From an uncultured Pseudomonadales bacterium (GTDB lineage Bacteria; Patescibacteriota; Microgenomatia; UBA1400; UBA12028), in contig CAZWPK010000001.1 in assembly GCA_964635905.1 (NCBI GenBank), positions 437,096-501,095 on the forward strand: DNA of 64,000 bases, in the 5' to 3' direction. The position numbers and the translations under genes are program-made. The notes below the pieces were generated by a model. That model saw nothing but the letters and a program-made list of their open reading frames with translations, was not told the DNA's origin and searched no databases. This document shows, in pieces, positions 47,125 through 54,838 of this stretch; the first letter of the stretch is position 1; every line of letters starts with the position of its first letter.

Positions 47125-47541
47125 TTACATCCCTGATCGTCGTTTCCGCACAACTTTAAGCTCTAGAATTGCTTTACGCAGTTCTCCTTCAGCAATCTGC
47201 ATTTCTGTCTTGGATAGCTTCTGGTTTTGCATGGATTCGTTGGCTTTTTTACGAGCTTCTTCAGCACGCGCTTCATTGATATCTTCACTGCGTACTGCAG
47301 AATCTGCTAACACAATCACTTTGTTGCCAGGTTCCACGTTCATAAAGCCCCCGGTAACTGCAAAAATATGTGCAGCACCTTTGATTTTATACGTCAGTTC
47401 TCCATCCGAGAGTTTGGTCATTAACGGAATGTGACTGGGAAGGATTGTGACTTCTCCAGTGGTCGTCATTGCAGTGACGGAATCAACTTCTTGATTAAGG
47501 AGTTCTTTTTCCTGGGTCACGATGGTGAGTTGAAGTGGCAT
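47125..47541 (-). CDS. atpC: F1 ATP synthase epsilon subunit
   Basis: MPLQLTIVTQEKELLNQEVDSVTAMTTTGEVTILPSHIPLMT is canonical epsilon. The start is internal to the listed 181-aa ORF. Confidence 0.8.
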   Translation of the reverse strand: MPLQLTIVTQEKELLNQEVDSVTAMTTTGEVTILPSHIPLMTKLSDGELTYKIKGAAHIFAVTGGFMNVEPGNKVIVLADSAVRSEDINEARAEEARKKANESMQNQKLSKTEMQIAEGELRKAILELKVVRKRRSGM

Positions 47542-47560
47542 ATCTTGTCTGTGATTATGA

Positions 47561-47869
47561 TTATAGCTTTGCGACAGGTTCAGTCGATAAGTTAATGATG
47601 AGTTGTGTGTTGTCGTCCGGGGCGACAATATTTTTAATGACGGTATGACACTCTTCACAGCGATACACAATTTGCTGCTTCCCCGACTTCATCTCCAGTC
47701 CAATCGGTTTCAAGTCCCCCCTACACAAATTGGCTCGATCTCCTGGCTCGTTATCCACGTGCAGGCCGGTCAGGCAGTACGGACAATGATCACGACTACT
47801 ACTTGGATGTGGCGCCACGGTCTTGCCACACTGCACACAGTCAAAACCGTCATTACGTTGTATGAACAC
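47561..47869 (-). CDS. RNHCP-like zinc-ribbon domain protein (102 aa) inserted between atpD and atpC
   Basis: CVQCGK...SRDHCPYC...CEECH Cys/His pattern. Confidence 0.45.
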   Translation of the reverse strand: MFIQRNDGFDCVQCGKTVAPHPSSSRDHCPYCLTGLHVDNEPGDRANLCRGDLKPIGLEMKSGKQQIVYRCEECHTVIKNIVAPDDNTQLIINLSTEPVAKL

Positions 47870-47870
47870 G

Positions 47871-48128
47871 TTAGTGTCTCCAATAGCTTACTTCCCGCAT
47901 ATCTATAATTTGATGTCTTGCAGATTTGCGATGATCATGATTACCAAAATATGCATCAACAAACACAGCATTTCTAGGATCATTTAGATTGACTAAAGTC
48001 GCGATAATTGCCTCCCAATTAACACTGTCTTGATGGGGGTTTGGATCTGGAAATGCGTAAAGTTTTGTTTCCATATCCACTTGTACTCTCCTTTTAGAGT
48101 GTCTTTGCTTTCTCGATTGCATCTTCAA
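47871..48128 (-). CDS. hypothetical protein (85 aa or shorter) inserted after atpD
   Basis: ORF overlapping the atpD 3' end. Confidence 0.3.
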
Positions 48129-49482
48129 TCGTTCCTACCATATAGAATGCTTGCTCTGGAAGGTCATCATGTTTCCCTTCCAAGATTTCTTTAAACGAAC
48201 GCACGGTATCCTCGACTTTGACGTATTTGCCTGGGATGTTGGTAAAGACCTCACCTACATAAAATGGCTGGGACAAGAACTTCTGGATCTTACGTGCACG
48301 ACCGACAATTAATTTGTCAGCGTCAGAGAGTTCGTCAATACCAAGAATGGCGATAATGTCTTGGAGTTCTTTGTAGCGCTGTAATACTTTCTGTACTCCA
48401 CGTGCCACATTGTAATGATCTTCTCCAACCGTGGCAGCGGTCAGAATCTTTGAGGACGAGACTAACGGGTCAACAGCGGGATAGATAGATTGTTCTGCCA
48501 AGGCACGGTCCAAAGAAATTGTGGAATCTAGGTGCGCAAATGTGGTGGCTGGTGCTGGATCAGTATAGTCATCGGCAGGCACGTACACCGCTTGAAATGA
48601 CGTGATAGAGCCCTTCTTTGTAGAAGTGATGCGCTCCTGAAGCGCTGCCATTTCTGTTGCCAAGTTTGGCTGGTATCCTACCGCAGAAGGGATACGCCCT
48701 AACAGGGCAGATACTTCTGATCCTGCTTGGGAGAATCGGAAAATGTTGTCGATAAAGAGCAACACATCTTCTCCACGATCATCGCGATAGTACTCCGCCA
48801 TGGTCAATGCAGTAAGTGCGATACGTAAGCGGTTACCTGGCGGTTCATTCATCTGACCAAAGCACATGATGGTACTTGCCAAGACACCGGAATCCTTCAT
48901 TTCGTGATACAGGTCATTCCCTTCACGAGATCGCTCACCGACACCAGCAAAGACAGAGTGCCCCGAATGCTCTTCGGCGATATTACGAATCAATTCCTGG
49001 ATAATAACGGTCTTTCCGACACCGGCTCCACCGAAAGCTGCCACTTTTCCTCCTCGAGCGAAGGGAGCAATTAAATCGATGACCTTGATTCCAGTCTCGA
49101 GCATTTGCGCGGAGGTCTCTTGATCGGTGAGTGCAGGAGCTTGTTTGTGAATGGGAGCAAAATGCGTAGCCTTAACAGGGCCTTTTTTATCAATTGGGTC
49201 TCCGACCACATTAAAGATACGACCTAGCGTCTCATCTCCGACCGGAACCATAATTGGAGCCCCGGTATCTTCGATTTCCATTCCACGGACAAGTCCTTCT
49301 GTAGGACCTAGTGCGATGGTACGCACGTCAGTACTATTGAGCTGTTGTTCCACCTCAAACGTCAGGACCCCCTTGTCTTTGCGGGTCAGTGTTAGGGCAT
49401 TATAGATAGCAGGCAGGTTTTGAGCAAACTGCACATCCACAACAGGTCCAATGATTTGAATAATTTTCCCTATATTTGGCAT
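48094..49482 (-). CDS. atpD: F1 ATP synthase beta subunit
   Basis: Walker [17 protein letters not shown] and other beta signatures. AGGGAGA RBS before MPNIGKIIQ. Confidence 0.95.
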
Positions 49483-49492
49483 AGTTCTCCCT

Positions 49493-52880: not shown

Positions 52881-53090
52881 TTAAGCTACGGACTGTTCAA
52901 TTGTCGACAATCGTCCTTTCAGAGAAACATCAATACGCTTACTCCCTAGGTAGACACGAAGTCCGCCTAAGATAAGGGAATCTACCGCATACTCGATGTC
53001 ACCTGCTAGTTTATGTTTGGCAAGGACCGCTTCCACGTCTTTGCGTGTTGCAGCGTCTAATTCGATCGCCGATTCAACTTTGATAGTCAT
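52881..53090 (-). CDS. atpH: ATP synthase delta (OSCP) subunit, C-terminal-domain-only form (69 aa)
   Basis: AIELDAATRKDVEAVLAKHKLAGDIEYAVDSLILGGLRVYLGSKRIDVSLKGRLSTIEQ aligns with the C-terminal ~70 residues of bacterial delta (...VIDGSVRGRLERL). Positioned right after atpF. Confidence 0.5.
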   Translation of the reverse strand: MTIKVESAIELDAATRKDVEAVLAKHKLAGDIEYAVDSLILGGLRVYLGSKRIDVSLKGRLSTIEQSVA

Positions 53091-53095
53091 AGAAT

Positions 53096-53593
53096 TTATA
53101 GTGATCCTAATGCTTTGTCTAATTCCTTGATGGATTGCGCAATGACAGCCTTGTGTGACTTAGTATCCTTAATTTCGTTTCCAATGACTTTAGAGGCCAC
53201 AGCCAAAGAAATCTTGGTTACTCTGTCTTCCATCTTGGTGAGTGAGGATTTCACTTCATTCTCAACTTTTTGAATCTCTTTTGCGCGGTATGCTGCGACT
53301 TCTTCTTTGGCTTCTTTAGTGAGTTTTGTCTTGAGGGATTTTACTTCCTCTCGAGTAGATTCCACAATTTTGGCAGCATCCTTTTCAGCTTGCGTTTTAG
53401 TTTTCTTCTTCATGCCTTCGAGTTCGTCTTTTTCTTTCATGGCATCCGCAGCAAATCGCTCTGCGTCTTCGGTTTTCTTTCGACGCTCATCGATTGCCTT
53501 GAGCATGGGTTTATAGAGTAGGAATGTTAAAGCTCCAAAGACAACACCAAAGTTGATGATCTGTGAAATGATTTGTAGTACGTTTATATCCAT
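53096..53593 (-). CDS. atpF: Fo ATP synthase b subunit
   Basis: N-terminal TM helix plus a long charged coiled coil. 165 aa. Confidence 0.8.
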   Translation of the reverse strand: MDINVLQIISQIINFGVVFGALTFLLYKPMLKAIDERRKKTEDAERFAADAMKEKDELEGMKKKTKTQAEKDAAKIVESTREEVKSLKTKLTKEAKEEVAAYRAKEIQKVENEVKSSLTKMEDRVTKISLAVASKVIGNEIKDTKSHKAVIAQSIKELDKALGSL

Positions 53594-53647
53594 AGTCTCT
53601 ATTCTTTTATTCTCCCTCCGTTCTGGAGTGAGTAAAAAGTCCTCCTC

Positions 53648-53887
53648 TTAAACGAATTTTAAGATTAAGGCGACGACCAAGGCGTAGATAGCAATTGCTT
53701 CCGCGAATGCCATACCCAAGATCATGTTCGTCTGAATTTTACTTGCAGCTTCTGGGTTACGCCCAATCGCGGACAGCCCTGATGAGGCAACCATTCCGAT
53801 AGCGATAGCAGGACCAATAGCACCCACTCCGATGGTGATTGCAATAGCAATTTGCTGTGCAGCTTCTGGACTCATAATTCCTTTCAT
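53648..53887 (-). CDS. atpE: Fo ATP synthase c subunit
   Basis: Two-helix hairpin with conserved MAFAEAIAIYALVVALIL (ion-binding Glu). Confidence 0.9.
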   Translation of the reverse strand: MKGIMSPEAAQQIAIAITIGVGAIGPAIAIGMVASSGLSAIGRNPEAASKIQTNMILGMAFAEAIAIYALVVALILKFV

Positions 53888-53926
53888 GCCCTACTGTTAG
53901 ATGGGCAGATCAACTATAGTACATGT

Positions 53927-54838
53927 CTAATGTTCTTCTTCTCCATGACCAATCGTAGCCAAGTTGAAAAAGACAAGAGAGAGCATCGCGAATACGACAC
54001 CTTGAATCATTCCTACAAACAATTCCAATCCATAAAATGGCATAGGAACGATAATAGGAACAAGGAACATCATCACCGCCAGGAGAACCTCCCCCGCAAA
54101 GATGTTTCCAAACAAACGGAATGAAAAGGACATGATCTTTGCTAGTTCGAGAATGAGTTCCAAAATCCCCACAAATGCTTTGATGGGACTACTAAAGTCG
54201 AAGTATTTTTTCAAGTAGTGTCCTCCCAAGACCTTCAAGCCAAAATATTGCGTGGACGCTACGGAAATGGCCGCCAGAGCAATGGTGGTGTTTAAGTCTG
54301 CGGTTCCCGCGCGAAACACAGGGATGACCTTTGCTGTGGCATGTTCTGACTCACTACCCTCAGAGGACTCTGGATGTTCTTCTGAACTTTCTTGAGCTAT
54401 CTCTTGGGAAGTGACGGCATCGTCCTCATGCGTATCTGAAGTACCTGCAACCGCAACATAGGTGGATGGAGCGATTACAGCTTGCTCTTCAGATTCTTTA
54501 CCTTCTTTAATGCCAATAGGACCTACTCCTGGGAGTAATCCCGCCCAATTGTTGAGTGCAATCCAGAGGAAAAAGGTCAGTACTAAAGGAAGGAACATTG
54601 TTGCTTTTGCTCGACTACCAGTCATCTCTGCCGCAAAGTTGTAGACCCCATCAACAAGCATCTCAAAGAGCGTATATAATCGTGATTTCTTCTTGGAGTT
54701 GGCTGAAGAATGTGCTATCAAGGCAAGAGCAATGATAAACAGCGATACAATCCAACTCGTTAGCATCGAGTTGGAAATGGAAAGTGGACCGACTTGGGCC
54801 AATGTTTCCGCTGAGATCGAGATGTGAAGGTTAGACAT
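53927..54838 (-). CDS. atpB: Fo ATP synthase a subunit, with a ~80-aa acidic insertion
   Basis: C-terminal a-subunit helices (RLFGNIFAGE with the conserved Arg). An acidic Ser/Glu-rich insertion is unusual. Confidence 0.8.
   Translation of the reverse strand: MSNLHISISAETLAQVGPLSISNSMLTSWIVSLFIIALALIAHSSANSKKKSRLYTLFEMLVDGVYNFAAEMTGSRAKATMFLPLVLTFFLWIALNNWAGLLPGVGPIGIKEGKESEEQAVIAPSTYVAVAGTSDTHEDDAVTSQEIAQESSEEHPESSEGSESEHATAKVIPVFRAGTADLNTTIALAAISVASTQYFGLKVLGGHYLKKYFDFSSPIKAFVGILELILELAKIMSFSFRLFGNIFAGEVLLAVMMFLVPIIVPMPFYGLELFVGMIQGVVFAMLSLVFFNLATIGHGEEEH

Follow-up and report, generated by a model that had tools for sequence, protein, structure and literature searches.

An F1Fo-ATP synthase operon with a delta subunit reduced to its C-terminal domain and with small, strain-variable genes among its F1 genes

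What kind of enzyme is encoded by an ATP synthase operon in which small genes, most of them of no recognised family, are set among the F1 genes, and in which the delta subunit is only 69 amino acids (aa) long? The question is raised by a stretch of 64,000 nucleotides (nt) of contig CAZWPK010000001.1, called the window below, whose host is judged from a 90%-identical homologue to be a Woesebacteria-like bacterium (Microgenomates, within the Candidate Phyla Radiation, CPR). The minus strand of the window carries, at 46799-54838, a packed single-strand array in which all eight F1Fo subunit families are recognised by Pfam and NCBIfam, in the canonical order a-c-b-delta-alpha-gamma-beta-epsilon and with a homologous delta C-terminal domain (delta-C). 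Canonical atpBEFHAGDC operons are contiguous and free of foreign open reading frames (ORFs); the window differs from them in having no N-terminal helical bundle on delta (delta-N), in having six extra ORFs between or after the F1 genes, and in an acidic loop of ~55-60 aa in subunit a. The array is probably a functional F1Fo operon of canonical order in which delta-C alone serves as stator anchor, and to which dispensable, lineage-specific, recombining small genes have been added.

The genes, in the order in which they are read, are the following (E, expect value).

53927-54838, minus strand: atpB, F0 subunit a, 303 aa; PF00119, E 3e-41.
53648-53875, minus strand: atpE, F0 subunit c, 75 aa (75 aa also in the assembly L001); the longest ORF starts at 53887; PF00137, E 4e-18.
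53096-53593, minus strand: atpF, F0 subunit b, 165 aa; PF00430, E 7e-14; normal length, without a delta-like extension.
52881-53090, minus strand: atpH, delta-C only, 69 aa; PF00213 (OSCP) positions 104-171/172, E 1e-11.
52544-52870, minus strand: orf108, 108 aa, small soluble acidic protein; no family match.
51048-52547, minus strand: atpA, F1 alpha, 499 aa; Pfam domains.
50715-51044, minus strand: orf109, 109 aa, small helical acidic protein with a conserved YPPGY motif; no family match.
49818-50693, minus strand: atpG, F1 gamma, 291 aa; PF00231.
49493-49810, minus strand: orf105, 105 aa, small protein, predicted beta-sandwich; no family match.
48094-49482, minus strand: atpD, F1 beta, 462 aa; Pfam domains.
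47871-48074 (longest ORF to 48128), minus strand: orf67, 67 or 85 aa; no family match.
47561-47869, minus strand: RNHCP zinc-ribbon protein, 102 aa, GTG start; PF12647, E 2e-27.
47125-47541, minus strand: atpC, F1 epsilon, 138 aa, with both domains (PF02823 and PF00401).
46913-47122 (46799-47122 with the tail past the stop), minus strand: sixth extra ORF, 3' of atpC, 69 aa here and 104 aa in all relatives.

An earlier note, made from the letters of this DNA, had described the interruption of the operon by small non-canonical ORFs, and ORF order and Pfam matches agree with it. Its gene order and coordinates stand as a whole, and the same calls recur in an independent assembly (L001; related loci are designated here by L numbers). 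Several starts are revised. That of atpC is most likely at 47541 (138 aa), so that there is no overlap with the RNHCP gene, and that of atpD is moved to 49482 (462 aa). The ORF that had been listed as 85 aa (orf67) most likely starts at 48074 (67 aa), with AAGGAG in front and with relatives of 67-70 aa. The list of inserts lacked the extra ORF 3' of atpC.

The 69-aa protein is matched in Pfam, NCBIfam, hhalign and Protein Data Bank (PDB) comparisons over delta-C alone; profile positions 1-103 are missing. In hhalign it is related to an alignment of 17 canonical delta C-domains with a probability of 98.9%, and to their N-domains with 1.1%. The best PDB match is the delta subunit of Chloroflexus aurantiacus (9itj_S, residues 90-152 of 157). 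By sequence the protein has the beta-sheet and two helices of the C-terminal domain and is predicted to bind b; it begins at profile position 104, and the N-terminal helical bundle is absent. It is under strong purifying selection, the ratio of nonsynonymous to synonymous substitution rates (dN/dS) being 0.05 against both L088 and L006. Of the two possibilities that the earlier note had left for delta, split or minimal, the second is therefore borne out. Every ORF in the window from 40 aa upwards was also searched with hidden Markov models (HMMs) of full delta, delta-N and delta-C. Only the 69-aa ORF was matched, and neither a full-length delta nor an N-domain was found in the 64 kb window, in agreement with the earlier statement that a full-length delta is lacking.

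Relatives show a range of delta subunits. The Pacebacteria-type loci L010 and L091 have a 71-aa delta-C with alpha directly after it and no ORF between. Delta is 94 aa in L016 (Roizmanbacteria) and 106 aa in L019. The nearest outgroups, L008 and L009, in which alpha is 68% and 62% identical, carry delta-C twice in one tandem protein, 146 and 148 aa in length (L008:908-1348 and L009:2233-2679; each domain E 1e-14 to 1e-21), again without an N-domain. Identity between the two repeats is ~44%, and their duplication is older than the split of the two genomes. In most other CPR loci delta is about 115-135 aa long with a short, unrecognisable N region, and canonical delta with both domains is found at 123 other loci. 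Because relatives carry the 71-aa, 94-aa, 106-aa and tandem forms, the loss of delta-N is, on these sequence comparisons, a graded trait of the clade and not a local gene split. A word-indexed homologue search with delta-C returned matches from the close lineage only, and a literature search on truncated delta in CPR gave nothing relevant.

If delta-N is absent, is it replaced? The earlier note had proposed that delta could be made as two separate chains in permuted order, or that its N-domain could be replaced; in such a model orf108 would stand in for delta-N on F1 as a helical bundle. The position of orf108 fits such a role: in all strains of the lineage its gene sits immediately between those of delta-C and alpha, and its stop overlaps the atpA start (ATGA), a coupling that is real. 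Four helices are predicted for it, the number that also makes up the shortened delta-N bundle of Chloroflexus (PMC12002316). Recombination tracts take the 3' third of delta-C along with orf108 (~80% nt identity there between L007 and L171). The direct comparisons, however, go against the proposal. The orf108 family is related to delta-N with an hhalign probability of 0.4%. The AlphaFold2 (AF2) model of the four helices is of low confidence, with a predicted local distance difference test score (pLDDT) of 56, and Foldseek with this model returned no delta or OSCP structure. Five orf108 alleles are 20-90% identical. Strains that share 86-100% identity in the regions with which orf108 would have to pair, namely the C-terminus of b and the N-terminus of alpha, are 20-41% identical in orf108 itself. 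Relatives without delta-N (L010, L091, L016, L008 and L009) have no equivalent of orf108, and the gene order is the reverse of N-then-C. Taken together, the proposal is very improbable.

Wider searches gave little for orf108. Exhaustive HMMER over 1.8 billion representative proteins found two true relatives; two further matches, to cadherin-like and PAS-array repeat proteins, were discarded as spurious on reading the sequences. A word-indexed homologue search matched the close lineage only. The possibility that orf108 is a degenerate second delta-C repeat was rejected by comparison.

The enzymes with which this operon can be compared differ in how much of delta they keep. The beta-sheet of delta-C binds the alpha N-terminal beta-barrel, and its two helices hold the C-terminus of b (PMC12002316). 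In the window the alpha segment ahead of the beta-barrel is ~8 aa shorter than in canonical enzymes. In 2025 work, delta-N was reported to restrict the F-ATP synthase to one peripheral stalk (PMC12229609). Bacillus PS3 FoF1 with delta-N (residues 2-104) deleted and delta-C fused to alpha assembles with as many as three stalks and has an H+/ATP ratio of 5.8 (Ueno et al. 2025, PMC12229609), and natural delta-deltaN-alpha fusions have been pointed to in Acidaminococcus fermentans (PMC12229609). The window resembles the PS3 construct in that delta-N is gone at the same boundary (PS3 delta-C is 105-178). In contrast to the PS3 and Acidaminococcus fusions, its delta-C is a free-standing, unfused protein of 69 aa, with stop codons and orf108 between it and alpha. 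Chloroflexus F1Fo (9itj), whose delta is the best PDB sequence match and has a shortened delta-N, forms two stalks and has two a-subunits (PMC12002316). It keeps a dimerising four-helix delta-N, whereas the window has none; the sister Woesebacteria L008 and L009 have two delta-C domains in one chain instead.

The N-ATPases also have a delta-C-like module without delta-N, at the end of a long b subunit (TIGR03321). The 69-aa protein matches TIGR03321 at positions 179-245 of 246 (E 0.0035) and the window b at positions 1-158. In the window, however, b (165 aa) and delta-C are separate proteins and the operon order is canonical. The N-ATPase operon, said to have been described by Dibrova and colleagues in 2010, reportedly runs beta-epsilon-Q-R-a-c-b-alpha-gamma, with AtpQ and AtpR and a long b with a delta-C-like tail. 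An N-ATPase identity was rejected on the canonical order and on scores far below cutoffs for TIGR03321, TIGR03306, TIGR03322 and TIGR03166.

Are the inserted ORFs genes at all? The gaps between the atp genes are almost wholly open frame; in shuffles the stop-free run was equalled in 3/5000, 2/5000, 14/5000 and 53/5000 cases. The in-frame codon score of the inserts is 0.20-0.28 bits/codon (e.g., 0.22 for orf108 and 0.21 for orf109), compared with a genome mean of 0.27 (standard deviation 0.10), and the other five frames are negative; the score of orf67 is marginal, at 0.035 bits/codon. None of the related contigs found (L088/L089, L006/L007 and L171-L181) has an empty slot. Within allele classes of the inserts dN/dS is about 0.14-0.3. 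For example, orf109 of L088 and L179 differs at 1/0/8 first, second and third codon positions (dN/dS 0.14), and orf108 of the window and L006 at 10/3/15 (dN/dS 0.16). With gaps filled by open frames, native codon usage and low dN/dS within alleles, the inserts are, on these sequence measures, real genes. The earlier note had named lack of conservation or of coding signal as grounds for doubting them; their position is conserved in L088 and L171-L181, and coding signal is present. Shuffling, codon scores and the distribution of differences over codon positions rule out a non-coding spacer or an annotation artefact.

The insert proteins are soluble and acidic (isoelectric points 4.7-5.1, no hydrophobic segment). 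The 108-, 109-, 105- and 85-aa ORFs and the last ORF have no match in Pfam, NCBIfam, PHROGs or PADLOC. Paralogy of the inserts with each other, with delta-N or with delta-C was ruled out by hhalign. They are limited to one narrow lineage, and the nearest outgroups, L008 and L009, have contiguous operons without them. When genomes and metagenomes were scanned with alpha, identities fell from 97% to 68% with no relative in between, and the insertions can therefore not be dated.

The canonical subunits around them hardly vary. Between the window and L088, aa identity is 97-100% for alpha, gamma, beta and epsilon (97% for alpha and gamma, 99% for epsilon, and 460/462 aa for beta), 91-96% for a, c and b (91% for a), and 88% for delta-C. 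The dN/dS of the canonical subunits in this pair is 0.005-0.07 (0.005 for beta, 0.02 for alpha and 0.07 for a), with synonymous divergence (dS) of about 0.25-1.0. Set against core subunits at 91-100% aa identity, the inserts are 25-49% identical.

Individually, orf108 and orf109 of the window are 39% and 43% identical in aa to those of L088, and the L088-type allele of orf109 is common to L179-L181. The orf105 protein is 28% identical to that of L088 and 98% to that of L178. Its AF2 model has seven strands (pLDDT 61) and generic Ig/FnIII-like Foldseek matches; at these scores the models of both orf108 and orf105 are too weak for fold assignment. There are three allele types of orf67, 26-53% identical, and the window and L088 share 25%; the gene has AAGGAG ahead of the ATG at 48074, and NCBI calls a protein of 69 aa.

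The 102-aa ORF had been called RNHCP-like in the earlier note, and it is a full-domain match to PF12647 (95.5 bits against a cutoff of 24, positions 2-89 of 90). The protein has seven Cys, and its motif reads RDHCP. It is better conserved than the other inserts, with 69-96% aa identity among strains (84% to L088) and dN/dS 0.15. It is a member of a family of unknown function. In all strains of the lineage its gene stands between atpD and atpC. A literature search gave no published connection of RNHCP with ATP synthase.

The last ORF has an in-frame premature TAG at codon 70 (46913-46915), where homologues have Tyr or Phe. The 37 codons after it stay in frame and conserved, and tblastn of the 104-aa proteins of L088 and L177 spans the window TAG at 54-57% identity. 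Allele identities of this ORF are 48-91% (49% between the window and L088). The TAG is either a recent nonsense mutation or a site of read-through, and it argues for dispensability.

In the alignments the inserts form deeply divergent allele classes, each of which shows purifying selection internally. Divergence of the inserts is discordant with that of their flanks, and in both directions. L007 and L171 have 95-100% nt identity in b, most of delta-C and alpha, and 33-48% across orf108. Conversely, orf108 of the window is 91% nt identical to that of L006 between flanks of 77-88%, and orf109 of L088 and L179 has a dS of 0.087 beside an alpha dS of 0.63. Between the window and L177, nt identity is 98% in greA, 96% in the RNHCP gene and 55% in the last slot. 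Recombination breakpoints are present on both sides of orf108. Because of this discordance we infer that homologous recombination, breaking within the conserved atp genes, carries the classes from one background to another. Neither flanking repeats nor mobile-element signatures were found around the inserts; an integron- or transposon-like cassette was rejected for lack of flanking repeats. A literature search found nothing described that matches this pattern of insert alleles.

Genes set between F1 genes are also found in other atp operons, both CPR and non-CPR. Examples are L013:11319-11747, L020:8727-9023 and 10809-11237, L073:8320-8889, L018:7516-8454 and L107:7516-8430; judged by eye, these inserts include a GIY-YIG nuclease, a 142-aa GxxExxY-like protein, a NUDIX hydrolase and an NAD-dependent epimerase. 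What is unusual in the lineage of the window is one ORFan for each F1 gene (five), with none in the F0 half, together with the allele structure.

The inserts are tightly joined to the genes that follow them. Apart from the ATGA overlap of orf108 and atpA, junctions are 1-21 nt. The last codons of orf105 (TRS-stop) overlap the conserved atpD ribosome-binding site, the conserved upstream sequence being ...aaagggagaact ATG, and the C-terminal WRH-stop of orf67 overlaps the ribosome-binding site of the RNHCP gene. No Shine-Dalgarno sequence can be recognised ahead of alpha, gamma or epsilon. Many of the operon's starts (47541-54838, minus strand) are preceded by ...GACT ATG or ...AACT ATG and not by a Shine-Dalgarno sequence; clear AGGAG-like sites are seen only at c, beta, RNHCP, orf67 and greA. 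Promoter-like sites are no more frequent than expected (14 found, 14.6 in shuffles), and the operon strand has only two weak terminator-like stems. Part of the selection on the inserts may be for staying open and correctly abutted.

These observations can be drawn into one picture. In the probable reading given at the outset, the stator stalk would be anchored to F1 by delta-C alone, and the delta-N cap that normally sits on the three-fold axis of the F1 crown would be absent, with orf108 no replacement for it. The inserts would not be stoichiometric ATP synthase subunits; they would be dispensable genes of an accessory or passenger kind, transcribed by read-through from the atp genes. Dispensability is suggested by their absence from L008 and L009 and by the premature TAG of the last ORF. 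Recombination that uses the extremely conserved atp genes as homology arms would swap insert classes between strains. The frames would be kept open and abutted partly since the downstream F1 genes depend on translating ribosomes, the starts of these genes (several without Shine-Dalgarno sequences) being embedded in insert 3' ends. Several points weigh against this picture. One insert follows each of the five F1 genes and none lies in the F0 half, which a pure passenger model does not predict. Purifying selection within classes and conserved motifs (ENEVLDxMLLTQ, YPPGY and LSLELMxPVYDLV) show that the proteins themselves matter, and not just their open frames, although the within-class dN/dS rests on few substitutions (9 and 28). 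Binding of the inserts to F1 would be compatible with all of the results. The search for a second atpH covered only 64 kb of the genome, and stalk stoichiometry and expression are entirely inferred.

In an alternative reading, the inserts are lineage-specific F1 assembly chaperones, or regulators or inhibitors, one for each F1 subunit. They would play a part like that of Atp11/Atp12, the zeta subunit, IF1 or AtpTheta, with no resemblance to these in sequence. It would account for exactly one small ORF after each of delta, alpha, gamma, beta and epsilon and none after a, c and b, and it agrees with the tight translational coupling, the occupation of the slots in all strains seen, the purifying selection inside allele classes and the soluble, acidic character of the proteins. 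It sits poorly with partners that are near-invariant (beta, 460/462 aa) beside inserts that are 25-49% identical, with sister lineages (L008 and L009) that have similar enzymes and no inserts, with the stop that interrupts one slot in the window, and with the lack of Pfam similarity, including to the F1 assembly-factor and inhibitor families in Pfam; such a role is rather unlikely. Less likely again is that a recombination hotspot has taken up the inserts as cargo and that they have a role in conflict (anti-phage, toxin/immunity or symbiosis-interaction), under diversifying or balancing selection and parked among the best-conserved genes of a tiny genome for long homology arms and strong expression. 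Discrete, deeply divergent, internally conserved classes that reassort independently among slots and backgrounds are what such cargo would give, and other CPR atp operons do hold selfish or accessory genes of the kinds named above. However, the inserts have no matches in PADLOC, PHROGs or phage and plasmid collections, no repeats or mobile-element signatures flank them, their codon usage is native, and positive selection is not demonstrated, dS being saturated between allele classes.

By analogy with the enzymes that lack all or part of delta-N, the delta-C-only enzymes of the window and its relatives might plausibly have more than one peripheral stalk, although this is less likely than not. 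Equally tentative is a joint reading in which Microgenomates-type CPR bacteria build F-ATP synthases without the symmetry-breaking delta-N, and the five hypervariable proteins are exchangeable partners, e.g., regulators or conflict decoys. If true, this would mean a higher H+/ATP ratio and ATP synthesis at very low proton-motive force in organisms that have no respiratory chain. The tandem delta-C of the sister lineage would offer two b-binding modules in one chain. The natural multi-stalk cases proposed so far are delta-deltaN-alpha fusions; the window and its relatives add natural free-standing and tandem delta-C-only subunits in a large uncultured clade with minimal energy metabolism, so that the existence and purpose of natural multi-stalk F-ATP synthases become directly testable. 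Exchanged alleles of 20-40% identity inside a highly conserved operon may point to accessory functions of the enzyme that are not yet known, or to a recombination hotspot that accessory genes exploit in tiny genomes.

The acidic insertion that the earlier note had reported in subunit a is real; its size by alignment is ~55-60 aa and not ~80 aa.

54335-54505, minus strand: acidic, strain-variable loop in subunit a, about residues 112-168, from alignment with other a subunits.

The insertion has 16 D/E against 3 K/R, and lies presumably on the outer face, in the loop that joins transmembrane helices 2 and 3, if the topology of E. coli subunit a is followed. It is a divergence hotspot, with the lowest nucleotide identity to relatives (0.48-0.50) and an 11-aa indel. 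A loop in variable form is also found in L009, L010 and L019, and is missing from L016, L044, L029, L063 and L024.

On the other side of atpB, tRNA-Lys and tRNA-Glu are located immediately upstream (55023-55206, plus strand). After the tRNAs a 450-aa ORF (55383-56735, minus strand) resembles, by eye, a large serine recombinase. Synteny with L006 ends exactly upstream of atpB, and an integrated element next to the tRNAs is possible. L008 (CAZIBX010000060.1) is labelled "uncultured Pseudomonadales", yet its alpha is the closest (68% identity) and its delta is a tandem delta-C of the Woesebacteria type; its bin is probably mislabelled or contaminated. Downstream of greA, a 174-aa methyltransferase-like gene (45689-46213, minus strand; PF13847, weak) is present in the window and L173-L177 and not in L088, and is a strain-level indel.

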